From the IMG/VR virus record IMGVR_UViG_3300031140_000003, positions 1-63,464 of that record: a stretch of 63,464 nt of DNA, one strand, 5' to 3'. Position numbers and translations under genes: made by a program. Source of the DNA: a virus (Duplodnaviria > Caudoviricetes). Positions 1-15,615 of this stretch are shown piece by piece (position 1 is the first letter of the stretch; every line of letters starts with the position of its first letter). The notes under the pieces were generated by a model, which searched no databases, was not told where the DNA came from, and worked only from the letters and a program-made list of their open reading frames with translations.

Positions 1-1
1 A

Positions 2-2548
2 GGTTTTCAAGGTGAAAAAGGAACTAAAGGAGATCAAGGTTTTCAAGGAGATACTGGATTAAAAGGAGATTTAGGAGATCAAGGTTTTCAAGGTGAAACA
101 GGAATCAAAGGAGATCAAGGTTTTCAAGGAGATACTGGATTAAAAGGAGATTTAGGAGATCAAGGTTTTCAAGGTGAAACAGGAATCAAAGGAGATCAAG
201 GTTTTCAAGGAGATACTGGAATCAAAGGAGATTTAGGAGATCAAGGTTTTCAAGGTGAAACAGGAATCAAAGGAGATCAAGGTTTTCAAGGAGATACTGG
301 AATCAAAGGAGATCAAGGTTTTCAAGGTGAAACAGGAATCAAAGGAGATACTGGAATCAAAGGAGATACTGGAATCAAAGGAGATCAAGGTTTTCAAGGA
401 GATACTGGAATCAAAGGAGATTTAGGAGATCAAGGTTTTCAAGGTGAAACAGGAATCAAAGGAGATCAAGGTTTTCAAGGTGAAAAAGGAACTAAAGGAG
501 ATCAAGGTTTTCAAGGTGAAAAAGGAACTAAAGGAGATACTGGAATCAAAGGAGATCAAGGTTTTCAAGGAGATACAGGAATCAAAGGAGATCAAGGTTT
601 TCAAGGAGATACTGGAATCAAAGGAGACAAAGGTACTAAAGGAGATCAAGGTTTTCAAGGAGATACTGGAATCAAAGGAGATCAAGGTTTTCAAGGAGAT
701 ACTGGATTAAAAGGAGATCAAGGTTTTCAAGGTGAAAAAGGAACTAAAGGAGATCAAGGTTTTCAAGGTGAAAAAGGAACTAAAGGAGATACTGGAATCA
801 AAGGAGATCAAGGTTTTCAAGGAGATACTGGATTAAAAGGAGATCAAGGTTTTCAAGGAGATACTGGATTAAAAGGAGATCAAGGTTTTCAAGGAGATAC
901 TGGAATCAAAGGAGATACTGGATTAAAAGGAGATCAAGGTTTTCAAGGAGATAATGGAATCAAAGGAGATACTGGATTAAAAGGAGATCAAGGTTTTCAA
1001 GGTGAAACAGGAATCAAAGGAGATCAAGGTTTTCAAGGAGATACTGGAATCAAAGGAGACAAAGGTACTAAAGGAGATCAAGGTTTTCAAGGAGATACTG
1101 GATTAAAAGGAGATCAAGGTTTTCAAGGAGATCAAGGTTTTCAAGGAGATACTGGAATCAAAGGAGATACAGGAATCAAAGGAGATCAAGGTTTTCAAGG
1201 AGATCAAGGTTTTCAAGGAGATACTGGAATCAAAGGAGATACTGGATTAAAAGGAGATCAAGGTTTTCAAGGAGATACTGGAATCAAAGGAGACAAAGGT
1301 ACTAAAGGAGATCAAGGTTTTCAAGGAGATACTGGAATCAAAGGAGATACGGGTATTAAAGGAGATCAAGGTTTTCAAGGAGATCAAGGTTTTCAAGGAG
1401 ATACTGGAATCAAAGGAGATACTGGAATCAAAGGAGATCAAGGTTTTCAAGGTGAAAAAGGAACTAAAGGAGATACTGGAATCAAAGGAGATCAAGGTTT
1501 TCAAGGAGATACTGGATTAAAAGGAGATCAAGGTTTTCAAGGAGATACTGGAATCAAAGGAGATACAGGAATCAAAGGAGATCAAGGTTTTCAAGGAGAT
1601 ACTGGAATCAAAGGAGATACGGGTATTAAAGGAGATACTGGAATCAAAGGAGATCAAGGTTTTCAAGGAGATACTGGAATCAAAGGAGACAAAGGTACTA
1701 AAGGAGATACTGGATTAAAAGGAGATCAAGGTTTTCAAGGTATTAAAGGAGATACTGGAATCAAAGGAGATCAAGGTTTTCAAGGAGATACTGGAATCAA
1801 AGGAGATACTGGAATCAAAGGAGATACTGGATTAAAAGGAGATCAAGGTTTTCAAGGTATTAAAGGAGATACTGGATTAAAAGGAGATCAAGGTTTTCAA
1901 GGTATTAAAGGAGATACTGGAATCAAAGGAGATACTGGATTAAAAGGAGATACTGGATTAAAAGGAGATCAAGGTTTTCAAGGTATTAAAGGAGATACTG
2001 GATTAAAAGGAGATCAAGGTTTTCAAGGAGATACTGGAATCAAAGGAGACAAAGGTACTAAAGGAGATCAAGGTTTTCAAGGAGATACTGGATTAAAAGG
2101 AGATCAAGGTTTTCAAGGTATTAAAGGAGATACTGGAATCAAAGGAGATACAGGATTAAAAGGAGATCAAGGTTTTCAAGGTATTAAAGGAGATACTGGA
2201 TTAAAAGGAGATCAAGGTTTTCAAGGTATCAAAGGAGATACTGGATTAAAAGGAGATCAAGGTTTTCAAGGTATTAAAGGAGATACTGGATTAAAAGGAG
2301 ATCAAGGTTTTCAAGGTATTAAAGGAGATACTGGAATCAAAGGAGATCAAGGTTTTCAAGGAGATACTGGAATCAAAGGAGACAAAGGTACTAAAGGAGA
2401 TCAAGGTTTTCAAGGTATTAAAGGAGATACTGGATTAAAAGGAGATCAAGGTTTTCAAGGTATTAAAGGAGATACTGGTATTAAAGGAGACAAAGGTACT
2501 AAAGGAGATACTGGATTAAAAGGATATCAAGGTTTTCAAGGAAATACT
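2..2548 (+). repeat. Shuffled tandem array of 9-nt units (GGAGATCAA, GGTTTTCAA, GGAGATACT, GGAATCAAA, GGATTAAAA, etc.)
   Basis: Directly visible; each unit encodes one Gly-X-Y triplet. Confidence 0.95.
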
Positions 2549-2746
2549 TTACCAGTAAATGGAAATGTAAATAATAGAATCTTAACAGCAACAGGAGGAG
2601 CATCAGTTAATGGTGAAAACTCTTTAACATTCGATGGAACAACACTAGCAACACCTAGGGTGATTACAGATACTATTGCAATAAGTACAGGATTTGAAAT
2701 AAGTAAAGATTCTTCTAGTGGAGATATTCTTTTTACATTTTCATAA
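2..2746 (+). CDS. Collagen-like fibre protein, 5'-truncated (about 280 Gly-X-Y triplets plus a short C-terminal domain)
   Basis: Not in the ORF track (no start in window). Frame 2 reads GFQ-GEK-GTK-GDQ-GFQ-GDT-GLK... and ends in GNTLPVNGNVNNRILTATGGASVNGENSLTFDGTTL...DILFTFS, TAA at 2744-2746. Confidence 0.9.
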   Translation, partial: GFQGEKGTKGDQGFQGDTGLKGDLGDQGFQGETGIKGDQGFQGDTGLKGDLGDQGFQGETGIKGDQGFQGDTGIKGDLGDQGFQGETGIKGDQGFQGDTGIKGDQGFQGETGIKGDTGIKGDTGIKGDQGFQGDTGIKGDLGDQGFQGETGIKGDQGFQGEKGTKGDQGFQGEKGTKGDTGIKGDQGFQGDTGIKGDQGFQGDTGIKGDKGTKGDQGFQGDTGIKGDQGFQGDTGLKGDQGFQGEKGTKGDQGFQGEKGTKGDTGIKGDQGFQGDTGLKGDQGFQGDTGLKGDQGFQGDTGIKGDTGLKGDQGFQGDNGIKGDTGLKGDQGFQGETGIKGDQGFQGDTGIKGDKGTKGDQGFQGDTGLKGDQGFQGDQGFQGDTGIKGDTGIKGDQGFQGDQGFQGDTGIKGDTGLKGDQGFQGDTGIKGDKGTKGDQGFQGDTGIKGDTGIKGDQGFQGDQGFQGDTGIKGDTGIKGDQGFQGEKGTKGDTGIKGDQGFQGDTGLKGDQGFQGDTGIKGDTGIKGDQGFQGDTGIKGDTGIKGDTGIKGDQGFQGDTGIKGDKGTKGDTGLKGDQGFQGIKGDTGIKGDQGFQGDTGIKGDTGIKGDTGLKGDQGFQGIKGDTGLKGDQGFQGIKGDTGIKGDTGLKGDTGLKGDQGFQGIKGDTGLKGDQGFQGDTGIKGDKGTKGDQGFQGDTGLKGDQGFQGIKGDTGIKGDTGLKGDQGFQGIKGDTGLKGDQGFQGIKGDTGLKGDQGFQGIKGDTGLKGDQGFQGIKGDTGIKGDQGFQGDTGIKGDKGTKGDQGFQGIKGDTGLKGDQGFQGIKGDTGIKGDKGTKGDTGLKGYQGFQGNTLPVNGNVNNRILTATGGASVNGENSLTFDGTTLATPRVITDTIAISTGFEISKDSSSGDILFTFS

Positions 2747-2775
2747 TACATAACCAAAAATAAATAAACAAAGAT

Positions 2776-4833
2776 ATGGCTTTACAAAATATAGCTTTAA
2801 AAATAGTAAGAACGACTGGGGAATTCCAAGCATCTTTATTCGACGAGACAACGTCTTCGTTTGGTATTGATACTACAACCGGATCGGTAAATACTCCAGC
2901 ATATTTTCAAGAACTAGACACATTTCCTTCGGGAAATGTGTTAACGTTCAAAGAAACAAACAATGCCATTATATCTAATAGTCAATTTGTTGGGAAAGGA
3001 ATATTATTAGCGAATACAACAATCGATAATAATCAAGTACTAACCCCTTCAAATTTTAATCCACTTAACCATTTATCTCTAAAGGGAGTTACCGGACATA
3101 CTGGTACCAAAGGAGATGATGGTTTTATTGGTTTAGTAGGCGATACTGGAGAAGTAGGATATCAAGGTGATATCGGATCTATCGGATCAACTGGAGATAC
3201 TGGAGATACTGGATTTCAAGGAACAACTGGAGCTAAAGGAGTTCAGGGAGTTCAAGGAGATATCGGTAACACTGGTGTTCAAGGTTCAATCGGAGCTCAG
3301 GGTTCTCAGGGTAACCAAGGTACTACAGGATATAAAGGATATAAAGGAAATACTGGACCAATAGGATCTCAAGGATCTGTTGGAGATAAGGGAGTTACTG
3401 GACCAATAGGGGTTCAAGGAGATACCGGGATTAACGGACCTCAGGGTGTTAATGGACAACCTGGTTTTATAGGACCTCAGGGTAATCAAGGAACTAAAGG
3501 AGTTCAGGGTTATAAAGGAATCACAGGAACTCAGGGAGTTCAGGGAGATACTGGTTTTATAGGAGTTAAAGGTAATCAAGGTGCATTAGGTAATACTGGA
3601 GCAACTGGATCACAAGGAGATAATGGAATCACCGGGCCTGTTGGAACAAATGGACCAACCGGACCTCAAGGTTTAAAGGGAAATCAAGGAGTTCAGGGTT
3701 ATAAAGGAATCACAGGAACTCAGGGAGTTCAGGGAGATGCTGGAAATACAGGAACACAGGGATCTAATGGTATTAATTCAGCATATGGTAATATTGGTTC
3801 AACAGGATCTGTTGGTAATATAGGACCGATTGGTGGTAATGGAATGACTGGATCTCAAGGTCAGATGGGAGATCAAGGAGCAAAGGGATCCACCGGATCA
3901 ACTGGATTAACAGGGCCACAGGGATTAATTGGAAACAAAGGTTCTCAAGGTGGTGCTGGATCAATAGGTGCAACTGGATATAAAGGTAACATAGGTATAA
4001 CAGGTAATAATAGAGGACCTCAAGGAAATACTGGAGCAACTGGAGCAAAAGGAGCAATTGGAAATACTGGTTCAACTGGTGCAACCGGTGCAACAGGCCC
4101 TAGGGGAGTTCAAGGGGCTAGAGGGCCTCAGGGATCTACTGGAGCTAAAGGAAATACCGGGGTACAGGGTTATAAAGGATTTATCGGAACAGGTGGAGCT
4201 AGAGGAGATCAGGGAAACATAGGAGCAAATGGAGATAGAGGATCACAGGGAGCTGTCGGATATACTGGGGTAAATGGTAATACTGGAACTACCGGATCAA
4301 CTGGTGGAAGAGGACCACAGGGAAATACTGGAGCAATTGGCGACTGGGGACCTGTTAGTACAGGAGGAGCTCGTGGAAACACAGGATCTCCTGGAGCAAA
4401 TGGAAACGTCGGGCACATTGGTTCTAAAGGATTAACAGGTTATAAAGGATTAACAGGTTATAAAGGACATAATGGAGTTGGAGGTTATAAAGGGAACATT
4501 GGATTAACTGGTTCAAAAGGAACAGTTACTGGACCTAATGGAAATACTGGACCTGCAGGTGCAAGAGGAGCACAAGGATACAGGGGAATTACTGGTACCG
4601 TTGGATCACCTGGCCCACAAGGAAGTCAAGGGGCTAGGGGAGTAAATGGACCGACTGGATCTACTGGACCACGAGGACCTCAAGGATATAAGGGAGATAG
4701 TGGAGCACAGGGAGCTACTGGACCTATGGGAACACAGGGTTTTCAAGGTATAAACGCCCCAAACAATTACTACGGGTATTCACATAACGGAGGAACTGTT
4801 GGAATATACGGTGGTATAATTAAATCACTCTAA
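2776..4833 (+). CDS. Collagen-like protein (chain A), Gly-X-Y at about aa 104-660
   Basis: ORF translation; long Gly-X-Y run between short non-collagenous ends. Confidence 0.9.
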   Translation: MALQNIALKIVRTTGEFQASLFDETTSSFGIDTTTGSVNTPAYFQELDTFPSGNVLTFKETNNAIISNSQFVGKGILLANTTIDNNQVLTPSNFNPLNHLSLKGVTGHTGTKGDDGFIGLVGDTGEVGYQGDIGSIGSTGDTGDTGFQGTTGAKGVQGVQGDIGNTGVQGSIGAQGSQGNQGTTGYKGYKGNTGPIGSQGSVGDKGVTGPIGVQGDTGINGPQGVNGQPGFIGPQGNQGTKGVQGYKGITGTQGVQGDTGFIGVKGNQGALGNTGATGSQGDNGITGPVGTNGPTGPQGLKGNQGVQGYKGITGTQGVQGDAGNTGTQGSNGINSAYGNIGSTGSVGNIGPIGGNGMTGSQGQMGDQGAKGSTGSTGLTGPQGLIGNKGSQGGAGSIGATGYKGNIGITGNNRGPQGNTGATGAKGAIGNTGSTGATGATGPRGVQGARGPQGSTGAKGNTGVQGYKGFIGTGGARGDQGNIGANGDRGSQGAVGYTGVNGNTGTTGSTGGRGPQGNTGAIGDWGPVSTGGARGNTGSPGANGNVGHIGSKGLTGYKGLTGYKGHNGVGGYKGNIGLTGSKGTVTGPNGNTGPAGARGAQGYRGITGTVGSPGPQGSQGARGVNGPTGSTGPRGPQGYKGDSGAQGATGPMGTQGFQGINAPNNYYGYSHNGGTVGIYGGIIKSL

Positions 4834-4860
4834 TAAATATAAAAATAAAAATAAATAATT

Positions 4861-7203
4861 ATGGCAAAATTTATATTAGGAACTACGCTAAACAGCAATA
4901 TAGTATTGCATAGTGGAAACCTAAATAGTACGAATTTTCCCGAATTCATTGGAGCTAATGGACCCCAAGGATCTAAAGGTACTCAAGGTACCCAAGGTCT
5001 TACGGGGTATATTGGGTTTAAAGGAGATCAAGGACTTTTAGGAGATACTGGTTTCAAAGGAATCAAAGGAAATCCAGGGTCGCAAGGAACTCATGGATCA
5101 CAGGGAATTATTGGTATTAAAGGAAATAAAGGATCTACTGGGGCTAATGGAGCAACAGGAGATATTGGTATTGTTGGAGAAGTTGGTTTATCTGGACAGC
5201 AAGGTGTTCAAGGAGATACTGGAATTCAAGGAGCTGTTGGTTCTAAAGGAAATCAGGGGGCTAATGGTGCACAAGGATCTAAAGGAACCTTAGGGTATGT
5301 TGGAATTCAAGGAGATAATGGTTTTCAAGGAGCACAGGGATCTACTGGATCTGTTGGTATCGTCGGAGACCGAGGAGCTCAGGGAACTACTGGAGCAAAT
5401 GGTGCTAAAGGAAATCAAGGACCTCAGGGAACTAAGGGTTTAGATGGTCTTACAGGATCTAATGGAGCACAGGGAACTAAGGGTCTAAAGGGATTTATAG
5501 GTAATAAAGGAGATAATGGAGTACAGGGATCTACTGGTATTAAAGGAGATGTTGGAAACAGAGGAAATCAAGGAACAACTGGGGCAATTGGAGCTAAAGG
5601 TAATAAAGGAGCTCAAGGAATTGGCGGAGCAACTGGATATCAAGGAGCAACTGGTCCACAAGGTACTCAAGGTACTAAGGGAATAACTGGTATTACTGGA
5701 TCATCATTCGGTAGATATACACAAACGAGTAGTTCATACATAACACCAACATCTAATTCAGATAAAACTAAATGGAGTTTTTCTAAATCCGGAACAACTG
5801 GTTGGAATTCACAATCATATTCTAATGAATCAATAACAGGATCAGCTACTATAAGATTTAGAGCAAATCCAGGATATCATCGAATGGTTGGTTTCAATTC
5901 TGATCCAACTTCTAATGCTAGTTATAATTCAATAGATTTTGCATTTTATCCACATGCTGGTAATACAAATATTTATGAAAGTGGTGGTAGTAAAATAAGT
6001 GATGTTCAAAGTGAAGTTAGATCATCTAGTGATATATACACTATAACATATAATGGTTCAACTGGATTAGTTAGTTACTATATACATGATGCAAGTTTAA
6101 ATCAAACTAGATTAATAAGAACAGTTACGACTGGTGCTAATAGAACTTTTTGGTTAGATACTTCAATGTATGAAACTGGAGCAGCTTTATATGATGTAGA
6201 ATTTTACGCTGGAATAAATATAGGTGCTAAGGGAAATACTGGACCTCAAGGAAATACTGGAACAACTGGAGCAACTGGAGCAACTGGAATTAAAGGAAAT
6301 ACAGGAGGTTCTGGATCAGTTGGATATACTGGACCAATGGGAGCACAAGGTTCTCAGGGTACTGAAGGAAATGTTGGTGCTAAAGGATCTACCGGGCCTA
6401 CTGGTTCAGTCGGTGATAAGGGGAATACAGGTCCAGCTGGTTATGTTGGAATTTCTGGATCTCAAGGTGCTGTTGGTTCAGGTGGAAATACTGGAGCAAC
6501 TGGAGATAAGGGATCAACTCCCGGAGGATACGGAGCACAAGGAAGCCAGGGTACTGGTGGATATAAAGGATGGTACGGATTTAGTGGGGATAAAGGAGCA
6601 ACAGGACCTTCGAGTGTAAGAGGGCCTCAAGGATCTAAGGGACTTACTGGAGCAGCAGGACCTGTAGGATATACTGGTAATAAAGGAGCAACTGGTGATA
6701 AAGGAGCAACCGGAGCTACAGGACCTACTGGATATAAAGGATACGTTGGATTAATTGGTAATAAAGGAGCATCTGGAGCATACGGGCCTCAAGGAGCTCG
6801 TGGAAATCAAGGATCTCAGGGATCTCAGGGATCTCAGGGAGCAAGAGGACCTCAAGGATCTCAAGGAGCCAAGGGATATACTGGATTAGTAGGATATAAA
6901 GGTCCTGATGGACCGGGAGGACCTACTGGATATAAAGGATATCAAGGTAATGCTGGTGGAAATTCTGGAACTGGTCCACAGGGACCTACTGGATATCAAG
7001 GTGCAGTCGGACCCGCTGGTGGAACAGGATCTGCTGGAGGTAGAGGAGCAAAAGGGAATCAGGGATCAGCTGGACCTACAGGATATAAAGGACTTACTGG
7101 TGATTTTGGACTTACTGGAGGACAGATATCTAATTACTTCTCAGGATCTTTTAATGATAATAATTTCATATCTAGAACAGTAGCAAATGGTAAAATACTA
7201 TAA
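4861..7203 (+). CDS. Collagen-like protein (chain B) with an internal ~170-aa globular insert
   Basis: Gly-X-Y at aa 31-282 and 455-755; aromatic, beta-rich insert between them. Confidence 0.9.
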   Translation: MAKFILGTTLNSNIVLHSGNLNSTNFPEFIGANGPQGSKGTQGTQGLTGYIGFKGDQGLLGDTGFKGIKGNPGSQGTHGSQGIIGIKGNKGSTGANGATGDIGIVGEVGLSGQQGVQGDTGIQGAVGSKGNQGANGAQGSKGTLGYVGIQGDNGFQGAQGSTGSVGIVGDRGAQGTTGANGAKGNQGPQGTKGLDGLTGSNGAQGTKGLKGFIGNKGDNGVQGSTGIKGDVGNRGNQGTTGAIGAKGNKGAQGIGGATGYQGATGPQGTQGTKGITGITGSSFGRYTQTSSSYITPTSNSDKTKWSFSKSGTTGWNSQSYSNESITGSATIRFRANPGYHRMVGFNSDPTSNASYNSIDFAFYPHAGNTNIYESGGSKISDVQSEVRSSSDIYTITYNGSTGLVSYYIHDASLNQTRLIRTVTTGANRTFWLDTSMYETGAALYDVEFYAGINIGAKGNTGPQGNTGTTGATGATGIKGNTGGSGSVGYTGPMGAQGSQGTEGNVGAKGSTGPTGSVGDKGNTGPAGYVGISGSQGAVGSGGNTGATGDKGSTPGGYGAQGSQGTGGYKGWYGFSGDKGATGPSSVRGPQGSKGLTGAAGPVGYTGNKGATGDKGATGATGPTGYKGYVGLIGNKGASGAYGPQGARGNQGSQGSQGSQGARGPQGSQGAKGYTGLVGYKGPDGPGGPTGYKGYQGNAGGNSGTGPQGPTGYQGAVGPAGGTGSAGGRGAKGNQGSAGPTGYKGLTGDFGLTGGQISNYFSGSFNDNNFISRTVANGKIL

Positions 7204-7227
7204 TCAAAAAAATAAAATAATAAAAAC

Positions 7228-9510
7228 ATGGCAAAATTAAATACAGGATCAACTGTAGGTGGTGAAACTCCCCTACATGTTGGTAATTTCCAAACAGGAA
7301 ATTATTCTGAGTTAGTAGGAGATCAAGGAGTTCTTGGTCAATCCGGTAATGTCGGTACACAAGGTTCACAGGGGATAAAGGGAATCGATGGTGTAAAGGG
7401 AGCACAAGGACCTCAGGGTATTAAAGGATCACAGGGATCTACCGGTCTTGTTGGTGATAATCCTACTGGAGATAAAGGACATATAGGAGTACAGGGAATA
7501 TCTCCAAAAGGAGATCAAGGATATGAAGGCCATATAGGTTTTCAAGGATCTACTGGCGATAAAGGAAATGTAGGGGATTCGCCCACTGGACCAAAGGGAA
7601 ACCAAGGAACTATTGGAGATTCTCCAACTGGACCAAGGGGACATCAGGGAAACAAAGGTTTAAGAGGAACACAAGGAAGTATTATAAATGGAAATCCTGG
7701 TTTTAAAGGAGATGTTGGTTTTATAGGACTTATTGGAGATAGTCCAAAAGGGCATATTGGTTCAAATGGACAACAGGGTCCTACTGGGTATCAGGGATCT
7801 ACTATTACTGCACAAACAGGCCCTCAAGGTAATCAAGGATCTCAAGGAGCTACTGGTTCTAACCCAACCGGACCAGAAGGTTTAAAAGGAGAACCTGGTT
7901 TTATAGGAGTTGTTGGAGATAGTCCAAAGGGACATATTGGAGACAGGGGACCTAATGGTCCAAGAGGAGTACAGGGAAGCACCTTAACAAACCAAACAGG
8001 ACCACAGGGACCTCAAGGAAATCAGGGATCTATCGGTAACGTTGGGCCTACTGGATTAAAAGGGACTAATGGTTTAAAAGGAATTACTGGAAATACAGGA
8101 TCTTCTCCAACAGGGGCTAAAGGTTATGACGGAGTACCTGGTGATAGAGGAGTACAGGGAGGTACTAATACAGGAGCAACTGGGAATCAGGGACCTCAGG
8201 GACCTACTGGTTATAATGGACTTTCTCCAAAAGGAGCAAAGGGAGATACAGGTTCAAGAGGATCACAGGGATCTAAAGGAGCACAACCAACAGGGTATAA
8301 AGGATTAACAGGATATAAAGGAGCAACTGGAGCACCTGGTGATCATTATAAAGGGGTAACTGGTGACAGAGGCCCACAGGGTTCACAGGGATATAAAGGA
8401 TCTGCACCGACCGGACCAGTTGGATATACAGCAGTTGGCGGTTCAAGAGGACCCCAAGGTTCTAGTCCAAGGGGAGCACAGGGTGCAACCGGATATAAAG
8501 GAGCAACAGGCGGAGTACCTGTTAGACCTAGAGGACCTCAAGGACCTCAAGGATATAAAGGAGCAACCGGTGGTACAGGAGCTTCACCAGTAGGAGCAAA
8601 GGGTTCTGTCGGAGCAACTGGAAATACAGGACCAACTGGAAATACAGGAGGTACTGGATCAGTCGGTAACAGAGGGCCTCAAGGAGCTCGTGGAAATCAG
8701 GGAGCTACTATCACAGGACCTAGAGGACCTCAGGGATATAAAGGACTTAATGGATACGGCGCATCTTATGCAGCAGGTGGAGCAAGGGGACCTCAAGGAG
8801 CAACTGGTAATCCAGGAGGAACTTCAAATGGAATAACTGGATATAAAGGAGATCCTGGACCTAATGGAGCTCGCGGAGTTCAAGGTTCAAAAGGATATAC
8901 TGGAATGAAAGGATACGCACAGACTAACGGTATTAATGGGAGTTTTTCAACAGCTTCACATACCGTATCATTCACTAACGGGCTAGTAACATCTATAACT
9001 ACATCTGGTCCACCTAGATGTTTAATTGCAGGAACTCAAGTCGAAATGGCTGATGGTACTTTCTCAAACATAGAAGACCTTATAGCAGGTGATGTTGTAA
9101 AGTCAGTAGATATACATTCGATGCCAGATACTGATAATGCGGAAATGCTTGCAACATGGAGCACTCAATCGTTAGGAGCTACATTTACAACGGCAATTGT
9201 TACTGGAAATGAAGCGTTAACTGTCGATATGATATATAGCATAAATAATGGACTTTTAACATGTTCATCTAGTCATTTACATATAATAGAACGTAATGGG
9301 ACATGGCATGTAAAGCAGACCTTTGAGTTATTAGGAGGAGATTATTTATTAAGTGAAGATAATTTCACCAAAATAGAAATAATATCAATAGACTCTGGAG
9401 ATTGTAACATAACGGGACATACTGTATATAATTTAGATGTTGAAAATGATGATGTTTATATTGCAAATGGAATAGTAACGCATAATAGGAAGCTAAGTCA
9501 ATTTGAATAA
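7228..9510 (+). CDS. Collagen-like protein (chain C) with C-terminal Hint (intein-like) domain
   Basis: Gly-X-Y at aa 31-564; Hint motifs CLIAGTQVEMADG, TCSSSH, VYNLDVENDDVYIANGIVTHN. Confidence 0.9.
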   Translation: MAKLNTGSTVGGETPLHVGNFQTGNYSELVGDQGVLGQSGNVGTQGSQGIKGIDGVKGAQGPQGIKGSQGSTGLVGDNPTGDKGHIGVQGISPKGDQGYEGHIGFQGSTGDKGNVGDSPTGPKGNQGTIGDSPTGPRGHQGNKGLRGTQGSIINGNPGFKGDVGFIGLIGDSPKGHIGSNGQQGPTGYQGSTITAQTGPQGNQGSQGATGSNPTGPEGLKGEPGFIGVVGDSPKGHIGDRGPNGPRGVQGSTLTNQTGPQGPQGNQGSIGNVGPTGLKGTNGLKGITGNTGSSPTGAKGYDGVPGDRGVQGGTNTGATGNQGPQGPTGYNGLSPKGAKGDTGSRGSQGSKGAQPTGYKGLTGYKGATGAPGDHYKGVTGDRGPQGSQGYKGSAPTGPVGYTAVGGSRGPQGSSPRGAQGATGYKGATGGVPVRPRGPQGPQGYKGATGGTGASPVGAKGSVGATGNTGPTGNTGGTGSVGNRGPQGARGNQGATITGPRGPQGYKGLNGYGASYAAGGARGPQGATGNPGGTSNGITGYKGDPGPNGARGVQGSKGYTGMKGYAQTNGINGSFSTASHTVSFTNGLVTSITTSGPPRCLIAGTQVEMADGTFSNIEDLIAGDVVKSVDIHSMPDTDNAEMLATWSTQSLGATFTTAIVTGNEALTVDMIYSINNGLLTCSSSHLHIIERNGTWHVKQTFELLGGDYLLSEDNFTKIEIISIDSGDCNITGHTVYNLDVENDDVYIANGIVTHNRKLSQFE

Positions 9511-9536
9511 CCCAATATACTTAATTTAAATATTTT

Positions 9537-9569
9537 AAAAGGATCTCATTTACGGGATCCTTTTTTTTT
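9537..9569 (+). terminator. Rho-independent terminator
   Basis: GGATCTC-ATTTAC-GGGATCC stem followed by T9. Confidence 0.85.
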
Positions 9570-9578
9570 GTAATATAT

Positions 9579-9605
9579 AAACAAATCAAGAATTACTTAT
9601 ATAAT
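9579..9605 (+). promoter_or_regulatory. AAAC-N17-TATAA promoter
   Basis: One of six intergenic copies with identical 17-nt spacing. Confidence 0.6.
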
Positions 9606-9622
9606 ATTTAAAATTCATATTA

Positions 9623-10552
9623 ATGCACGAGACTAATATTAAAAACATAATACTTAATGTTGATTCAGTATCTGAAGGATTAAATTCAACATGGGATATT
9701 AGAGGATGGATAGGTACTACTGAACCTAAAACAAAGGTAACATCCTTATTAATAGACGGAGAGCCTTTAGAAATATTATGGGAAAATAGATCAGACGTAT
9801 ATGATTATTACGAAGGAACTTTAGAGTTTTGTTCAGGTTTTAATATTTCAATTCCAAAAAGTAAAATAAACATGAATTTATGGATAGGTTTAAACGAATC
9901 TATCGTCGAATTCATCACATTAGGTAAATGGGTTGCCGCTAAATCAGGTTTCAATAAAATCAATAAGGACGCAATGGTCGTTGATAATTTTTATGCAGAT
10001 CCAGATTTAGTTAGAGAGTATGCTATGAATCATTTAGAGTTTGCTCCCTCAGGATATCATAAAGGACAGAGATCACAGACTAGATATATTTTAGATGGAA
10101 CTAAAGAAAAATTAGAAGAGGTCCTAGGAAAGAAGATAATCAACTGGAATTACGAAGAATACGCTAATGGCGTTTTTCAATTCTGTACTGCCGATCAACC
10201 TATTGTTTTTCATGTAGATTCTCAAATGTATGCTGGTATGGTTTATTTAACGCCCAATGCCCCACCTCAAACAGGGACTTCAACATATAAAAGTAAAGTC
10301 ACAGGATTTAATGCATTTCCAGGTTTAGAATCTAGGAAAGGTATTGAATATTATGAAAGCTTTAAAGGATCTAATAACGATATGAATTTCTATGACGGTA
10401 CTCAATTCGAAAAGATTGATGAAATAGGAAACGTATATAATAGACTGGTAATTTTTAACTCATCACAAATTCATGCAGCTACCGAATACTTCGGAGATGC
10501 TATAGATAATGCAAGATTCTTTCACATGTTCTTCTTTGACGTAGAACAATAA
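9623..10552 (+). CDS. 2OG-Fe(II) oxygenase-like protein (DUF6445-type) with N-terminal extra domain
   Basis: VVDNFYADPDLVR, HVD (HxD), GMVYLTP, NVYNRLVIF...H, R.F..FF. Confidence 0.75.
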   Translation: MHETNIKNIILNVDSVSEGLNSTWDIRGWIGTTEPKTKVTSLLIDGEPLEILWENRSDVYDYYEGTLEFCSGFNISIPKSKINMNLWIGLNESIVEFITLGKWVAAKSGFNKINKDAMVVDNFYADPDLVREYAMNHLEFAPSGYHKGQRSQTRYILDGTKEKLEEVLGKKIINWNYEEYANGVFQFCTADQPIVFHVDSQMYAGMVYLTPNAPPQTGTSTYKSKVTGFNAFPGLESRKGIEYYESFKGSNNDMNFYDGTQFEKIDEIGNVYNRLVIFNSSQIHAATEYFGDAIDNARFFHMFFFDVEQ

Positions 10553-10566
10553 AAATAACAATTTAA

Positions 10567-12447
10567 ATGAAAATTAATATAATTACAAGATGTACTAGAC
10601 CTGGTAATCTTTCAAAGATTAGCAATAGTGTATTTGACACATCAAGAACAAATGAGGTAGACATCCACTGGCATATAATGTTTGACTCAGGAGCTTTGAA
10701 AGATATAGATGCTGAAATTCTAGCAGATATAGATCAAGCAAATACAACATTACATTTTATAAAAGCTCAGAAAGATTATATGATGTACCCTGAAATGACA
10801 GATCTAATAAGACATGTTGTTGCGAAAACAACAGATCATTCAGGTTGGTTTTATGTACTAGATGATGATAATATAATGCACCATAATTTTTATCAAAAAA
10901 TTGAAGAAAACATGATGCTTCCTGAGAATTCTAATAAAGTAATGTATATTGTTTCTCAGCACGTTAATGGTAAGGATTTTACAAAATTAGATATTAGAAT
11001 TGCTGCTCCAGAATTTACCGGTCGCAAGAAGACTGATATGGGCCAGCTTTTATTTAGAGGAGATCTCTTCGATGAATACTGTTTCCCAACAGAAAATGCA
11101 TTCGATGCATATTCGGCAGATGGGATATTCTTAGATGCAGTTTATGGGGATCACCCTGAGAGATTTGTTTGGATTAATGAGGTTCTTTCACACTATAATT
11201 ACTTACAGAAAGAGGCAACCCCCAAACTGCCAAGGATCCTATATATAGGTGAAGGATCTCCGGATTTAAAAACAACAAAGCATCTAGAATACGAGTCCGA
11301 CGAATTAACAGTTAGATATGCAAAAGACGATAATAATATTAATATGATTCTAGCGGAATTCAAACCCGATTCTATAATAACAATAGGAGATAGTTTTGAA
11401 GATTTTCCGAATTTAGCAGCAATGCCTCTTCAATTTAGAAGAAAGTGGATGAATATCAACAATAATAATAACATATCTGATTTTGGAAACATTGCATATA
11501 AGGTTTCAGAAAATGCAATGTTAGATCCAAACAATATGGATGACCATGATTTAATATCATTCACGACTCCAATTTATAACATCGGAGAAAATCTATGGAA
11601 AACATATGAATCAGTCGCAAGACAGACTTATGCTAATTGGGAATGGGTATTAATGAATGATTCAACCGATGGTGGTAAAACATTAAAGGTTGCTGAAGAA
11701 ATTGCAAAACATGACCCAAGGGTTAAAGTTTATGATTTCAGAGAAAAATCAGGAGGAGTTATTGGTGAAGTGAAATGGAGAGCAAATTCAATGTCAAGAG
11801 GATATATTATTGCCGAACTAGATCATGATGATTTATTAGTAGAATCATGCGCTGAAGATTTACATAAAGCGGCACAGAAGCACCCTGAATGCGGATTCTT
11901 CTATGGAGATACTGCTGAAGTTACTGAAGAATGGGAAAACAATATGTATGGGCCTGGATTCGCACTAGGATACGGTAATTATAGAAAGGAAGAATATAAA
12001 GGTAGGATGTTGACTCCAGCGAATCAACAGAACATTAACCCAAAAACAATAAGACATATTGTTGGAGTTCCTAATCATATTAGAGCATGGCGAAGATCTA
12101 CTTATTTTGAAATCGGAGGACATAACAGGAGTTTGACTGTTGTTGATGATTATGAATTAATAGTTAGAACATTCTTAAAAACAATAATGTGTAAGATACC
12201 TAAATTAAGTTATATTCAATTCTTATATAGTAATGAAGGTCACAGGAACACGCATGATTTATCTAGAGCAGATATTCAAAGAAGAACTAGGACAATTGCT
12301 GACTATTATAATATACAAATAAAGGAACGTTTTGAGGAACTCGGAATCCATGACTGGGCATATGAGGAGAATCCAAACTATCCGATACACGCAGAATCCC
12401 GATTCGGAAAAGAAGAAGGTGTTGCTAATATAACATATCAAGAATAA
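10567..12447 (+). CDS. Two-domain GT-A/GT2 glycosyltransferase
   Basis: N-domain YVLDDDN; C-domain TPIYN...SVARQTYANWEWVLMNDSTD...ELDHDD...IGGH...DDYEL. Confidence 0.85.
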   Translation: MKINIITRCTRPGNLSKISNSVFDTSRTNEVDIHWHIMFDSGALKDIDAEILADIDQANTTLHFIKAQKDYMMYPEMTDLIRHVVAKTTDHSGWFYVLDDDNIMHHNFYQKIEENMMLPENSNKVMYIVSQHVNGKDFTKLDIRIAAPEFTGRKKTDMGQLLFRGDLFDEYCFPTENAFDAYSADGIFLDAVYGDHPERFVWINEVLSHYNYLQKEATPKLPRILYIGEGSPDLKTTKHLEYESDELTVRYAKDDNNINMILAEFKPDSIITIGDSFEDFPNLAAMPLQFRRKWMNINNNNNISDFGNIAYKVSENAMLDPNNMDDHDLISFTTPIYNIGENLWKTYESVARQTYANWEWVLMNDSTDGGKTLKVAEEIAKHDPRVKVYDFREKSGGVIGEVKWRANSMSRGYIIAELDHDDLLVESCAEDLHKAAQKHPECGFFYGDTAEVTEEWENNMYGPGFALGYGNYRKEEYKGRMLTPANQQNINPKTIRHIVGVPNHIRAWRRSTYFEIGGHNRSLTVVDDYELIVRTFLKTIMCKIPKLSYIQFLYSNEGHRNTHDLSRADIQRRTRTIADYYNIQIKERFEELGIHDWAYEENPNYPIHAESRFGKEEGVANITYQE

Positions 12448-13037
12448 TGAGCTATCCATACGACGCAAAGCAAAATGAAGCAATATCACACTACTGGTTT
12501 GCAGAGGGTTTTTCATCTGAGGAACTCAAATTAATAGAAGACGGTGTTGCTGTATTACCATATATGAGGGGGACTGTTCATTCAAAAAATGCGCATGATA
12601 GAAAATCCAATATAAAATGGATTCCAAATCACTCAGAATGGGATTGGCTTTATTATAAATTAATGAGATTCGCTGATATTGCTAATGAGGAAATGTGGAA
12701 GTTTGATTTGAAATCCGCCGGCGAATTAATACAATATACTGAATATGATTCTGATGAGTTAGGTAAATATGACTGGCATCAAGATATTGGATTAGGGGAC
12801 ACTTCTTCCAGGAAAATATCAATAACAGTACAGTTATCAGATTCAAACGAATATGAAGGTGGAGATCTTTGTTTCTGGCAAGGAGGACCTTCTCTAGAGG
12901 AGAATAATATAATAGCTCCTAGAGGAAAAGGGAATGTTGTATTGTTTCCTAGCTACATCGTCCACTCGGTTAAACCAGTTACTAAAGGAACTAGAAAATC
13001 ATTTGTCCTATGGTTAGGAGGAGGACATTATAAATAA
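12447..13037 (+). CDS. 2OG-Fe(II) oxygenase, prolyl-4-hydroxylase/PKHD-like
   Basis: YDWHQD, RKISITVQLSD..YEGGDL, VLFPSY..HSVKPVTKGTRKS.VLW. Confidence 0.88.
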   Translation: MSYPYDAKQNEAISHYWFAEGFSSEELKLIEDGVAVLPYMRGTVHSKNAHDRKSNIKWIPNHSEWDWLYYKLMRFADIANEEMWKFDLKSAGELIQYTEYDSDELGKYDWHQDIGLGDTSSRKISITVQLSDSNEYEGGDLCFWQGGPSLEENNIIAPRGKGNVVLFPSYIVHSVKPVTKGTRKSFVLWLGGGHYK

Positions 13038-13041
13038 AAAT

Positions 13042-13275
13042 ATGGGATATCCGAACATGAATTGTATGAATATTATAATGTATGTCCATCATATGGAGGT
13101 AGATGCTTTGTTCGATTTCATCAATGGAAGAACAAAAATACTACCTGAATATTGGATTAATCCTAAAGATTTACCAGGTAGCGTTACTGGCGGTTTTCTA
13201 GAGGTTGCCGTAAATTATGAGGTTTATACAAGGATACGTGAGGTAAGGGAACATTCTTCTTGGATTAATTTATAA
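13042..13275 (+). CDS. Hypothetical protein
   Basis: ORF track; tightly packed after the oxygenase. Confidence 0.6.
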   Translation: MGYPNMNCMNIIMYVHHMEVDALFDFINGRTKILPEYWINPKDLPGSVTGGFLEVAVNYEVYTRIREVREHSSWINL

Positions 13276-13300
13276 ACCTTTTCACATTGCTGTGTATAAT
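13274..13300 (+). promoter_or_regulatory. AAAC-N17-TATAAT promoter
   Basis: Repeated motif with exact spacing. Confidence 0.6.
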
Positions 13301-13306
13301 ACCTAT

Positions 13307-13552
13307 ATGGCAAAGAAACAACTACAAAGAAAAATCACAGTAAAGTCTCCTAAGATGGGAGGAACTTATTATTTCAGATTTGCAGGATCCGTTCTACAGG
13401 GTACTATTATAGACAAATGTGAAAGTTTACGAAAACACTACAACGAAAAATATTATACATTCCTATCAGACGGTACTACTAAAGGAATATTCAACAAATA
13501 TCCCGTGTCAATCCGTGACATAGGATCAAACATTAATGACGTAAAATATTAA
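13307..13552 (+). CDS. Hypothetical protein (start moved to ATG 13307)
   Basis: The track's GTG start at 13292 lies inside the promoter motif. Confidence 0.6.
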   Translation: MAKKQLQRKITVKSPKMGGTYYFRFAGSVLQGTIIDKCESLRKHYNEKYYTFLSDGTTKGIFNKYPVSIRDIGSNINDVKY

Positions 13553-13554
13553 AT

Positions 13555-14280
13555 ATGTATAATTCAAGCGAACTAAAGGGAATGTTATTTATTGATATAG
13601 AAACATGCTCACAACATAAAACTCTTGCAGATTTAAAAAATAATGCACATGAAGGTCTATATGATCTTTGGGTAAAGAAAGCGGAAAGTATTCGTAAATT
13701 CGAAGAAGGTAATGATGATTTAGATGATTCTGTTCTTTACGAAAAATGTGCAAGTATTCATGCTGAATTTGGAAAGATTAATACAATTTCAATAGGTCAA
13801 ATTGCGTTTGATGAGAATGGGATCCCTTTTGATTCTAAAATCAAATCGTTTTATGGAGAAGACGAACATACTTTATTAGAGGAATTTAATAATACTATGA
13901 GAGCGGTCTTCGCTAAGAATCCTAATGTAAAATTAATTGGACATAATATAAAGAAGTTTGATATGCCATGGATTGTTAAAAGATCCCTGATCAACGGACT
14001 TATAGTACCTCACCAATTCCACTTCCAAAAACAAAAACCATGGGAAAACTGTCTATTAGATACCTATGAGATCTGGAAGTTTGGAGGATATAATAGCTCA
14101 TCACTTGATTTGATTTGTAATCTATTTAATATACCGTCACCTAAAGATGCAATGAAAAACTATGAGGTTTCTATGCATTATTGGAATGGCAATATAGAGA
14201 ACATTATGAAGTACTGTGAAGGAGATGTTAGAGCAACAATGAATGTTATGTTAAAAATGTCTAATATGGATATTATTTAA
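13555..14280 (+). CDS. DEDD 3'-5' exonuclease (PolB exonuclease-like)
   Basis: FIDIET, GHNIKKFDMP, LLDT, YCEGDV. Confidence 0.85.
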   Translation: MYNSSELKGMLFIDIETCSQHKTLADLKNNAHEGLYDLWVKKAESIRKFEEGNDDLDDSVLYEKCASIHAEFGKINTISIGQIAFDENGIPFDSKIKSFYGEDEHTLLEEFNNTMRAVFAKNPNVKLIGHNIKKFDMPWIVKRSLINGLIVPHQFHFQKQKPWENCLLDTYEIWKFGGYNSSSLDLICNLFNIPSPKDAMKNYEVSMHYWNGNIENIMKYCEGDVRATMNVMLKMSNMDII

Positions 14281-14306
14281 AAATAAATGAAAGTTTTTTC
14301 ACCAGG

Positions 14307-14355
14307 ATTTTTTTATATCAATTAAAAGTGTTATATTTACTTATAACTAATAAAC
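14307..14355 (+). promoter_or_regulatory. Conserved putative early promoter, copy 1
   Basis: TTTTTTATATCA..TAAAAGTGTTATATTTACTTATAACTAATAAAC; four copies in the window. Confidence 0.75.
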
Positions 14356-14363
14356 AACAAAAT

Positions 14364-14624
14364 ATGGAATTCGAACATGACGATTACGAAGAATTTGAAA
14401 ACGTAACACCTAGTACCGAAGAGCTAGAACACTTGGTTAACCTCAAGGACCGCCTTGCACGTGCGAACTACGAAGCTATAATCAAACATGGAATTGACAC
14501 GGATAAAACAGGTGATCCCGATATGATTCTGAGCATTATAAAAGAAACATTGTTTTACTTTCAGGAATTGGAAGAATATGAGAAATGTGCCAGGTTAAAA
14601 AAAGAGATAGAATTGTTTCAATAA
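14364..14624 (+). CDS. Small protein with C-terminal UVR-like EEYEKC motif (start moved to ATG 14364)
   Basis: YFQELEEYEKCARLKKEI. Confidence 0.7.
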   Translation: MEFEHDDYEEFENVTPSTEELEHLVNLKDRLARANYEAIIKHGIDTDKTGDPDMILSIIKETLFYFQELEEYEKCARLKKEIELFQ

Positions 14625-14647
14625 CATTTTAAGATATATAGTACATC

Positions 14648-14821
14648 ATGACAGAAGAACAAGTAGAAAGAATCGCAGTAGCATTAGAAAGCATCGCCCA
14701 ATTAATGGACAATGCACAGAAGAGAGATATTAATTTTAAGAGAAATCAAATTAAAGAATCTAACAAATCTAAGAAGCCTGCTAAAATACAAAGACCAGCT
14801 CCAACTAAAAAAGACAAATAG
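14648..14821 (+). CDS. Small basic hypothetical protein (57 aa), missing from the track
   Basis: MTEEQVERIAVALESIAQLMDNAQKRD...KKDK-TAG; follows GATATATA and abuts dnaJ. Confidence 0.65.
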   Translation: MTEEQVERIAVALESIAQLMDNAQKRDINFKRNQIKESNKSKKPAKIQRPAPTKKDK

Positions 14822-14823
14822 TA

Positions 14824-15615
14824 ATGGACTACTATGAGATTCTTGGAGTAAAGCAAGGGGCAACGCAAGTTGACATTAAAAAAGCATACAGAAACCTTGT
14901 AAAAATACATCACCCTGATGTAGGAGGATCTGAGGATAAATTTAAAAGCATATCACAAGCATATGATACTTTAAATGATTCTCAAAAAAAACAAGCATAC
15001 GACCATGCTAATAGTAAACAACATACTAGATTTGACAGTTTTTTTAATAATTTTGAAGGAGACTTTTCAAATATGTTCAATGATGCCTTTAACCAGAATG
15101 CAAAAGGGCAAGATATTACTATTAGAATTAGATTAACACTTGAAGAAGTATTTCATGGAACATCGAAATATATAGATACTGGAGAGAACAAATTCAATAT
15201 TAAAATACCAAAGGGAATACATGAAGGTGCTAGATTAAAATTAAGAGGGAAAGGAGCATCGCATCCTGTAAATTCCTCAGCACAAAGGGGAGATGTTATT
15301 CTAATAATGAATATAATGCCTGACCATGAAATGATTGTAACTAACAATGATATTTGGTTAGATTACAACATACCATTTTATGATATGCTACTTGGAGGAG
15401 ATTTTGAAGTGAAGACTAAAGTTAACAGTGTTAGGATAAAGGTCCCTAAGAACTCATTTGATGGTAAAATACTGAGAATAGTTGGGATGGGATTCCCGAT
15501 ATATAATACTAATAAGTATGGTAACCTAATGGTGAAGTTAAGAGCATCAAACGTTACATTAAACGAAAAGCAATTAGAATACGTTCAAAAAATTAAAGAG
15601 TTAGAAAATGCATGA
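14824..15615 (+). CDS. dnaJ: DnaJ/CbpA-type co-chaperone
   Basis: DYYEILGV...KKAYR...HPD J-domain plus DnaJ C-terminal domain; no Zn finger. Confidence 0.92.
   Translation: MDYYEILGVKQGATQVDIKKAYRNLVKIHHPDVGGSEDKFKSISQAYDTLNDSQKKQAYDHANSKQHTRFDSFFNNFEGDFSNMFNDAFNQNAKGQDITIRIRLTLEEVFHGTSKYIDTGENKFNIKIPKGIHEGARLKLRGKGASHPVNSSAQRGDVILIMNIMPDHEMIVTNNDIWLDYNIPFYDMLLGGDFEVKTKVNSVRIKVPKNSFDGKILRIVGMGFPIYNTNKYGNLMVKLRASNVTLNEKQLEYVQKIKELENA

Follow-up and report, generated by a model that had tools for sequence, protein, structure and literature searches.

A candidate system for the modification of collagen-like fibres lies at the 5' end of a 63,464-base virus record of IMG/VR (IMGVR_UViG_3300031140_000003; estimated completeness 23%), the whole of which is referred to here as the window. 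A preliminary description of this DNA had listed four collagen-like genes followed by a DUF6445-type oxygenase, a two-domain glycosyltransferase (GT) and a prolyl 4-hydroxylase (P4H)-like oxygenase, and all of these genes were found. Both oxygenases are of the 2-oxoglutarate (2OG)/Fe(II) type. The features of the locus are as follows.

2..2746, + strand: col1, a collagen-like fibre gene cut by the 5' end of the window; 283 unbroken Gly-X-Y triplets, then a non-collagen C-terminus of 65 aa
2776..4833, + strand: col2, a collagen-like fibre gene, 685 aa (Pfam Collagen, E 3.1e-78)
4861..7203, + strand: col3, a collagen-like fibre gene, 780 aa (Pfam Collagen, E 1.7e-75)
7228..9510, + strand: col4, a collagen-like gene, 760 aa (Pfam Collagen, E 1.5e-43)
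~9019-9510, + strand: Hint/intein-like domain at the C-terminal end of col4 (TIGR01443 intein_Cterm, E 4e-5, 23.7 bits against a cut-off of 15.6)
9537..9564, + strand: terminator-like hairpin 3' of col4, 11 pairs and a T run (consensus match alone)
9578..9605, + strand: promoter-like site TAAACA-16-TATAAT ahead of the enzyme genes (consensus match)
9623..10552, + strand: DUF6445-type 2OG/Fe(II) oxygenase, 309 aa (Pfam DUF6445, PF20043, E 1.3e-10, 42.1 bits against a cut-off of 24)
10567..12447, + strand: glycosyltransferase with two GT-A domains, 626 aa (Glycos_transf_2, PF00535, E 1.5e-17, 64.5 bits against a cut-off of 23.3)
12447..13037, + strand: P4H-like 2OG/Fe(II) oxygenase, 196 aa (2OG-FeII_Oxy_3, PF13640, E 6.7e-14, 53.1 bits against a cut-off of 27)

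The four collagen-like open reading frames (ORFs) stand in tandem (2..9510) and together contain 801 Gly-X-Y triplets. Since the ORF of col1 is open at the 5' end of the window, four collagen genes is a minimum. The repeat of col1 is extremely regular, with periods of 18, 36 and 126 nt, and this gene encodes no Pro. In col2, 183 triplets in 5 runs follow a non-collagen N-terminal part of 103 aa. The 182 triplets of col3 are divided by a globular insert of approximately 172 aa (residues 283-454; window 5707-6222), for which a weak match to gp37_C (E 0.095, in a Pfam search at E 10) was the only one obtained, and col4 carries 153 triplets in 22 short runs with regular interruptions. Neither the C-terminus of col1 nor the N-terminus of col2 matched a Pfam family, even at E 10. 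The N-termini of col3 and col4 (4861-4970 and 7228-7337) are alike, with approximately 30 residues (MAK...G.T...LH.GN...) ahead of the repeats, and this segment may be a common anchoring module. The Hint/intein-like domain of col4 begins with Cys and ends with ...THN, and Hint_2, Vint and Intein_splicing also gave weak matches; the domain suggests self-cleavage or the transfer of the collagen chain onto another group.

Lys occupies the Y position of 183 of the 801 triplets and the X position of none, a restriction that cannot be chance. Together with Thr (186) and Gln (230), it fills 599 of the 801 Y positions, while Pro occurs 63 times at X and 10 times at Y; these figures bear out the bias towards Lys, Thr and Gln at Y, with Pro mostly at X, that had been noted earlier. 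Accordingly, 183 X-Lys-Gly substrate sequences are present in the genes adjoining the enzymes. X-Pro-Gly sites, the kind on which a collagen P4H acts, are scarce, and any prolyl hydroxylation would therefore take place mainly at X.

The DUF6445 protein was modelled (pLDDT 77.8) as an N-terminal beta-sandwich (approximately residues 1-105) followed by a double-stranded beta-helix domain, and its His197, Asp199, His284 and Arg298 are invariant among 24 sequences. In the P4H-like protein, His111, Asp113, His173 and Arg183 are invariant among 15 sequences. The Fe(II) triad and the basic 2OG residue of both oxygenases are common to the whole superfamily and are therefore not diagnostic of lysyl hydroxylases (LHs) of the PLOD type. 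Neither the single DUF6445 sequence nor its profile had a significant sequence match among solved structures, or any match to PLOD or mimivirus L230 at E up to 10, and its N domain had no Pfam match even at E 10. The DUF6445 family is without a described function, and its name was absent from the open literature searched. The P4H-like protein aligned with an LH profile over 61 core positions only (E 2.5e-4), and its NCBIfam match, a PRK05467-type Fe2+ dioxygenase, fell under the cut-off.

The GT starts 1.1 kb 3' of col4, with the DUF6445 gene alone intervening, and consists of an N domain, a small linker domain and a C-terminal GT2 domain. The Glycos_transf_2 match covers residues 332-469 only. 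Asp99-Asp100-Asp101 of the N domain are invariant among 24 sequences, and D419, H420, D421 and D422 of the C domain are also invariant. The presence of two GT-A domains, as proposed in the preliminary description, was supported at the fold level: the AlphaFold model (pLDDT 76.1) aligns over approximately 520-570 columns with the two-GT-A enzymes K4CP (E 1.4e-13), PmHS2 and LARGE1, and a viral GT-A cluster of the ESM Atlas is similar to the 225 N-terminal residues (0.97, with 173 features in common). The C domain also matched two-GT-A polymerases in sequence (E 7.4e-9), and the model resembled multi-domain viral glycosyltransferases in a viral fold search. However, the N domain had no Pfam match even at E 10, and hhalign detected no profile similarity between the N and C domains. 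The stop codon of the GT gene (TAA, 12445-12447) and the ATG of the P4H-like gene have an A in common (TAATG), which confirms the overlap behind the translational coupling previously suggested for these genes. Membrane segments were not predicted in the DUF6445, GT or P4H-like proteins, which, with their intact catalytic residues, is expected of cytoplasmic protein modification. A complex prediction for the GT and the P4H-like protein (score 0.13, mark 0.32) weighs neither way on binding.

The linkage of these genes was surveyed in relatives of the window. Protein-guided scans of IMG/VR yielded 12 GT loci, 62 DUF6445 loci and 17 P4H-like loci; the survey set comprised the window and 61 IMG/VR loci (L023-L083), 62 in all, which formed 28 clusters at 95% DUF6445 identity. 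A same-strand collagen gene lies upstream in 17 of the 21 clusters having at least 2 kb of upstream sequence, with a gap of at most 160 bp in 12, and a GT follows DUF6445 in 27 of the 28. The preliminary description had proposed a survey of phages for the co-occurrence of collagen, DUF6445, GT and P4H-like genes; the order collagen-DUF6445-GT was conserved, while the P4H-like gene was present in only 8 of the 28 clusters. The slot after the GT varies in content: besides the P4H-like gene, an additional GT2 gene, a gene for a 317-aa ATP-grasp protein (with weak 'sugar-transfer associated' matches) or a gene for a protein that we call P0502 may stand there.

P0502 (205 aa) stands right after the GT in 18 of the 62 loci (2 of the 28 clusters), in a sister lineage whose DUF6445 and GT proteins are 53-55% and 61-62% identical to those of the window. 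Its residues 16-201 match residues 517-713 of human LH3, in the lysyl hydroxylase domain (E 2e-25), and it also resembles that domain of mimivirus L230 (E 1.5e-18); the catalytic motifs line up, and the collagen of this lineage has Lys at Y in 0.21-0.23 of triplets. By family, P0502 is a bona fide collagen lysyl hydroxylase of the LH3/L230 type. Since P0502 follows the same DUF6445-GT pair, a true collagen-type hydroxylase sits where the window has its P4H-like gene. In one member of the lineage, the two genes after the GT are as follows.

L032:12804-13418: P0502, LH
L032:13429-14379: ATP-grasp protein, 317 aa

A gene of the size of this ATP-grasp gene recurs in several other relatives. Further sugar genes stand by the DUF6445-GT pair in some loci, namely, a dTDP-4-dehydrorhamnose 3,5-epimerase (E 4.6e-60) and extra single-domain GT2s (L063:11645-12190, L048:12851-13522 and L073:2483-3508); the locus behaves as a variable glycosylation island.

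With P0502 as the query, a search of cultured phages returned four proteins, all named 'hypothetical'.

NC_031922.1 34413-36254 (L128:4684-6525): S-CAM9 gp218, fusion of GT25, GT_PLOD and LH
MK613348.1 33029-34798 (L127:6795-8564): Roseobacter phage CRP-6 gp58, fusion of GT25, GT_PLOD and LH
NC_055761.1 129960-131804: S-PRM1 gp162, match of the P0502 search
OQ504984.1 171526-173391: S-8S56 protein, match of the P0502 search

The domain scan covered two of the four, S-CAM9 gp218 and CRP-6 gp58. In the Protein Data Bank, S-CAM9 gp218 matched LH3 (5.5e-33), mimivirus R699 (4.1e-32), COLGALT1 (1.2e-19) and L230 (1.3e-8). All four genes are located just 3' of a tail-fibre gene, which in S-CAM9 and CRP-6 is the sole collagen-bearing gene of the genome. 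Lys is found only at Y in the repeats of these tail fibres (26/99, 22/59, 23/59 and 24/55 triplets). In S-CAM9, S-PRM1 and S-8S56, the genome's best match to the P4H-like gene of the window is a gene of this same cassette. The double GT of the window showed no similarity to S-CAM9 gp218 in an hhalign comparison (probability 0.2) and had no Pfam match to GT25 or GT_PLOD; a PLOD1-3-like GT appeared at rank 47 of the viral fold search (TM ~0.2).

We also searched IMG/VR with an LH-domain alignment, and the best 80 of 287 related stretches gave 58 new loci in 19 clusters (90% identity). The three domains are in one ORF in 52 of the 58 loci, and the remaining 6 run off the end of a contig or locus. 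Same-strand collagen was found upstream of the fusion in 13 of the 16 clusters with at least 2.5 kb upstream, but downstream in none of the 12 with at least 2.5 kb downstream (Fisher p 1.5e-5). All 14 collagen-bearing fusion clusters have Lys at Y in 0.16-0.38 of triplets and at X in approximately none. Moreover, a homolog of the window P4H-like protein (33-41% identity, E 1e-20 to 1e-30) is encoded next to the fusion gene in 13 of the 19 clusters, in most cases directly against it. As controls, we used phage collagens without an LH nearby, in which Lys at Y was counted in 0 of 195 (S-CRM01), 0 of 167 (DSL-LC02) and 0 of 48 (S-SCSM2R) triplets, and in 1 of 2660 in megaphage LR756501. Lys at Y is not general to phage collagens. 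Since the controls are nearly free of Lys and the LH-linked collagens have 16-38%, the window (23% at Y, 0 at X) resembles the LH-linked class.

LR756501 is a 735-kb megaphage with giant collagen-like proteins of up to 3488 aa (LR756501.1 398000-422000 and 103000-125000; L190 and L191), which are almost wholly Gly-Thr-Ser; in one case, Ser is at Y in 683 of 848 triplets. It also encodes a homolog of residues 223-601 of the window GT at 78-79 kb, a position more than 12 kb from any collagen.

Taken together, we consider the chances a little better than even that this locus of a large marine phage is a cassette for modifying collagen fibres, and that its products hydroxylate and glycosylate the fibres encoded upstream. 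Four collagen-like proteins would be synthesised in the host cytoplasm, and the three soluble enzymes encoded directly 3' would act on them before or during the folding of the triple helix. Side chains of the repeats, with Lys at Y or Pro at X as candidate targets, would be hydroxylated by one or both of the 2OG/Fe(II) oxygenases. The P4H-like protein is the likelier hydroxylase because, in the sister lineage, a true collagen lysyl hydroxylase is encoded at the same position. The double GT would then add one or two sugars, on the new hydroxyls or directly on Thr at Y, and the DUF6445 protein most likely tailors the glycan or provides one more hydroxyl as an acceptor. The phage would probably gain a triple helix that is stable or protected although it has no hydroxyproline (Hyp) at Y, or else fibres coated with sugar. 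The P4H-like enzyme and the double GT are the best-supported actors, with DUF6445 as a presumed auxiliary. We infer the collagens as the substrates, as well as the residue modified, the sugars and the order of the steps, from the sequence and its comparison.

The preliminary description had favoured Lys or Thr over Pro as the target. This preference is reasonable, although Pro at X would still be a possible site. The P4H-like gene accompanies Pro at X as a trend at most: in the window clade, the one-sided Mann-Whitney test gave p = 0.068 (7 versus 15 clusters, uncorrected for relatedness), and in the LH survey, p = 0.46 (12 versus 2). We set aside DUF6445 as the lysyl hydroxylase itself because a true LH co-occurs with it in the sister lineage and Lys-free collagens also adjoin it.

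The central claim of the preliminary description, that the phage modifies its own collagen, was thus partly supported. Gene order is conserved, an LH is present in the sister lineage, the fusions stand by collagens with Lys at Y, and P4H-like genes abut these fusions; however, the window enzymes are not PLOD or COLGALT homologs, and the support comes from gene context and comparison. Several observations, some of which are given below with the alternatives that they favour, weigh against collagen modification. A PLOD-type LH was found neither in the window nor in its larger relatives G001, G002, G004 and G005. The nearest solved relatives of the P4H-like protein are PiuC/YbiX 'PKHD-type' hydroxylases (E 1.1e-4), a search of the open literature for a PiuC substrate having found nothing, and no chain of a collagen P4H, PLOD or L230 was matched at E up to 1. 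The P4H-like gene also occurs beside Lys-rich and Lys-free collagens alike. Among the 103 Lys residues at Y in col1, 89 are followed by Gly-Asp or Gly-Glu; KGD and KGE pairs stabilise collagen triple helices through salt bridges, so a purely structural role for Lys is possible. No collagen is encoded just upstream in 4 of the 21 clusters (L063, L071, L074 and L077), and on the 236-kb contig of L071, a collagen ORF of 2383 aa is approximately 23 kb away, while thymidylate synthase and ClpP genes stand between DUF6445 and the GT. Furthermore, the downstream genes of the relatives are also syntenic, and the adjacency within the clade is therefore not independent of general synteny.

This conservation of gene order on both sides is what would be seen if the oxygenases hydroxylated non-collagen proteins of the host or phage, such as translation factors, and the adjacency to collagen were an inherited order. 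The top fold matches of the DUF6445 protein fit this explanation, comprising OGFOD1 (E 2.5e-5), Tpa1, the Pseudomonas putida P4H (an EF-Tu hydroxylase) and PHD2. HygX and BesD/HalD-type amino-acid hydroxylases are also among its best solved matches. Relatives of the P4H-like protein are abundant (346 phage records), and among 10 loci with homologs from beyond the clade (34-61% identity), a collagen ORF was found in the fetched flank of 1 and was lacking in the other 9. However, the association with collagen recurs across unrelated phage families, which inherited gene order cannot explain, and DUF6445 is found fused to glycosyltransferases. We regard unrelated targets as quite unlikely.

These fusions also bear on the role of DUF6445 within the cassette. 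An exhaustive search yielded 1618 DUF6445-domain proteins at E up to 1e-3, and we scanned 66 of the best 150, namely, those longer than 400 aa minus the three longest. The partners were FkbM methyltransferase (17), Methyltransf_24 (11), GT2 (11), GT17 (7), Glyco_tranf_2_4 (7) and GT25 (2), with tetratricopeptide repeats (TPRs) as another, and DUF6445 is the C-terminal module. A fusion to collagen was never found among the 66. The fusions to GT2, GT17 and GT25 indicate that oxygenase plus transferase is a recurrent unit. The domain architecture points to work on glycans or to such a unit, and in this detail it departs from the proposed hydroxylation of collagen. The TPR module had no match in the window GT or DUF6445 protein.

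Alternatively, the GT alone may modify the fibres, at Thr in Y and without hydroxylation, in the manner of a BclA-type system; DUF6445 would tailor the sugar and the P4H-like enzyme would target something else. SgtA and BclA3 provide a worked precedent for this. Sugar-modifying oxygenases (HygX, PolD, PasI and SnoK/N) are among the fold matches of the DUF6445 protein. Every collagen beside DUF6445 and the GT has Thr at Y (0.10-0.61 of triplets), while Lys at Y is missing in six clusters (L067, L070, L045, L066, L046 and L047). The closest cyanophage homologs of DUF6445 (39-43% identity) are at a distance of 3.6-7.3 kb from collagen genes, the genomes having no others, and these collagens contain Thr and Gln but no Lys. 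Three findings are left without an explanation on this view: in the sister lineage, the same GT is followed by an LH3-type hydroxylase; P4H-like genes are repeatedly paired with collagen cassettes; and Lys is restricted to Y, as in LH-linked collagens. Glycosylation of Thr by the GT alone therefore appears rather unlikely to us. In two Synechococcus phages (PQ898602.1 165855-167720, L102:6684-8549; OR032571.1 48456-51199, L103), these closest cyanophage homologs have other domains joined to them or beside them; one has a TPR-type N-terminal region, and the other is accompanied by an FkbM methyltransferase and a mannosyltransferase-like gene.

More distant DUF6445 homologs (27-29% identity) are present in S-SSM7, Sf-FS3, S-WAM2 and P-HM1, the genomes of which have no collagen match, and in S-SSM7 and Sf-FS3 they lie within a large cluster of sugar-nucleotide and glycosyltransferase genes. 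The best fold matches of the window GT (K4CP, PmHS2, LARGE1 and TarP) are polysaccharide polymerases, and NCBIfam returned weak matches to TuaG, PgaC and WcaA. In L063, RmlC follows DUF6445. These findings are consistent with enzymes that build or alter the O-antigen or capsule of the host, for example, to block superinfection, in which case their adjacency to the fibres would reflect a shared variable region for host recognition. In pelagimyophages, glycosyltransferases beside tail fibres have been interpreted as O-antigen modifiers (PMC7029224). However, all three window proteins lack membrane segments, inspection of the ORFs around the cassette revealed no gene for transport or a lipid carrier, and a collagen-type lysyl hydroxylase has no obvious role in lipopolysaccharide synthesis. 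The tight same-strand adjacency to collagen in 12 clusters also argues against remodelling of the host surface, which we judge to be unlikely.

Regarding the wider context, nearly all genes of the window are on the + strand, and they also include a primase, PhoH, RNase HII and DnaJ. G+C varies between approximately 29 and 43% (2-kb windows), with the peak over the collagen genes and approximately 31-34% across most of the remaining DNA. A tRNA scan of the window found none. The closest relatives of the baseplate wedge protein are in huge phages (LR756500, 41%; Lak phages, 33%; Tenacibaculum phage pT24, 29% identity), and close relatives of the window proteins come from marine metagenomes, including Tara samples. 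The source of the window is a large marine phage. A DNA search of the enzyme region against cultured phages gave a sole match of 190 bases, in two megaphage records, and the collection thus holds no cultured representative of the window clade. Between col4 and the enzyme genes, the hairpin and promoter-like site proposed as the terminator and separate promoter of the enzyme genes are present. However, both are consensus matches only, and since promoter-like sites are no commoner in 1..15000 than in shuffled sequence (47 found, 48.2 expected), the site at 9578-9605 is weak evidence for a promoter. The following genes stand directly after the cassette or in the structural module.

13555-14280: PolB-type 3'-5' exonuclease
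14824-15615: DnaJ homolog (E 4.7e-51)
16426-17142: PhoH
17190-17828: RNase HII
18742-19671: endonuclease
51288-53678: large tail-fibre-like gene of the structural module, with one short collagen stretch
53726-56302: large tail-fibre-like gene of the structural module, with one short collagen stretch

The collagen stretches of the tail-fibre-like genes have 14 triplets each, with Lys at Y 1 and 0 times, and their composition is therefore unlike that of the four long collagens. The block from the exonuclease to the endonuclease indicates that the cassette borders replication and auxiliary genes rather than the tail module. With a PolB-type exonuclease, PhoH, RNase HII and an endonuclease so near, the oxygenases and GT might hydroxylate and glycosylate DNA bases, as happens in T-even phages and in the base J pathway. 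The combination of an oxygenase with a GT is the logic of base J. However, no TET/JBP or AlkB-like match was present among the listed fold and family matches, the GT is a two-domain GT-A enzyme of the polysaccharide/protein-glycan type, and the genes are linked to collagen. DNA hypermodification is very improbable.

The enzymatic maturation of collagen, with hydroxylation of Lys and Pro and glycosylation of hydroxylysine, is held to be a trait of animals, mimivirus L230 being the one exception among viruses. In Baltic viromes, viral P4H genes have been termed cryptic (PMC9301287). Iyer et al. 2010 predicted hydroxylation and sulfation for bacterial collagen-like proteins and interpreted cyanophage dioxygenase arrays as secondary metabolism; the word glycosyltransferase is absent from that text (PMC2938197). 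In the open literature, we found neither a phage lysyl hydroxylase nor modified phage collagen described, subscription journals and supplements being outside the scope of the search. If phages, too, modify their collagen-like fibres, the origin of the collagen-modifying toolkit would shift to the bacterial and phage world, an explanation would be available for how Hyp-free phage fibres acquire stability or protease resistance, and fibre glycans would add a layer to host recognition. The PLOD/COLGALT-like fusions in the cultured phages S-CAM9, S-PRM1, S-8S56 and CRP-6 make phage collagen modification directly testable. In addition, compact soluble hydroxylases and transferases of bacterial type could aid the production of modified recombinant collagen.

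A bolder proposal is that a second, non-PLOD machinery for the hydroxylation and glycosylation of collagen is made up of DUF6445, the double GT and the PiuC-like oxygenase, and that it arose in large marine phages in parallel to PLOD/COLGALT. DUF6445 would then be a new family of collagen hydroxylases, its hydroxyls serving as sugar acceptors. We hold this proposal tentatively and consider it on balance doubtful. If correct, collagen maturation would, together with the PLOD-like fusions of cyano- and roseophages, be a widespread phage trait.

Among known systems, mimivirus codes both for collagen-like proteins (L71, R240 and others) and for the enzymes that modify them, as the window may also do. 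L230 hydroxylates Lys of mimivirus collagen and glucosylates it, and the mimivirus collagens, like those of the window, carry Lys at Y and contain little Pro (PMC9614988). However, L230 unites a GT25-like N domain and a PLOD-like LH in a single chain, whereas the enzymes of the window are encoded separately and belong to other families (DUF6445, a GT2-type double GT and a PiuC-like Oxy_3), and none of the three has a significant sequence match to L230. Judging from these comparisons, the window enzymes are analogous, not homologous, to L230 and PLOD. The host of the window phage, in contrast to that of mimivirus, is a bacterium, and the chemistry would therefore be cytoplasmic.

The SgtA-BclA3 system of Clostridioides difficile shares with the window a GT-A gene beside a prokaryotic collagen-like gene with Thr in its repeats; SgtA, encoded beside bclA3, puts GlcNAc on Thr of the collagen repeats (PMC7157674). 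Unlike the window GT, SgtA has one GT-A domain with TPR repeats, there are no oxygenases, and the product is a spore surface layer, not a virion. Bacillus anthracis BclA is a further glycosylated prokaryotic collagen-like case. K4CP, PmHS2 and LARGE1 have two GT-A domains like the window GT, which they match over both. However, they polymerise free or protein-anchored disaccharide repeats, the likeness is one of predicted structure, and the root-mean-square deviation is large (~20 A) because the arrangement of the domains differs.

The phage fusions of GT25, GT_PLOD and LH resemble the window cassette in being phage-encoded, in lying 3' of collagen fibres with Lys at Y and in having P4H-like homologs alongside. 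In contrast to the window enzymes, they are true PLOD/COLGALT homologs in one protein, and at their loci DUF6445 is absent in 57 of 58 and a double GT of the window type in 58 of 58. LH3/PLOD3 and COLGALT1 differ from the window system, which has no LH domain, no endoplasmic reticulum and GT domains without detectable homology to GT25 or GT_PLOD. Nevertheless, the logic of a hydroxylase and two glycosyl transfers on X-Lys-Gly would be common to both, and the order of the sister lineage, two GT-A domains and then an LH, mirrors the GT-AC-LH order of LH3.

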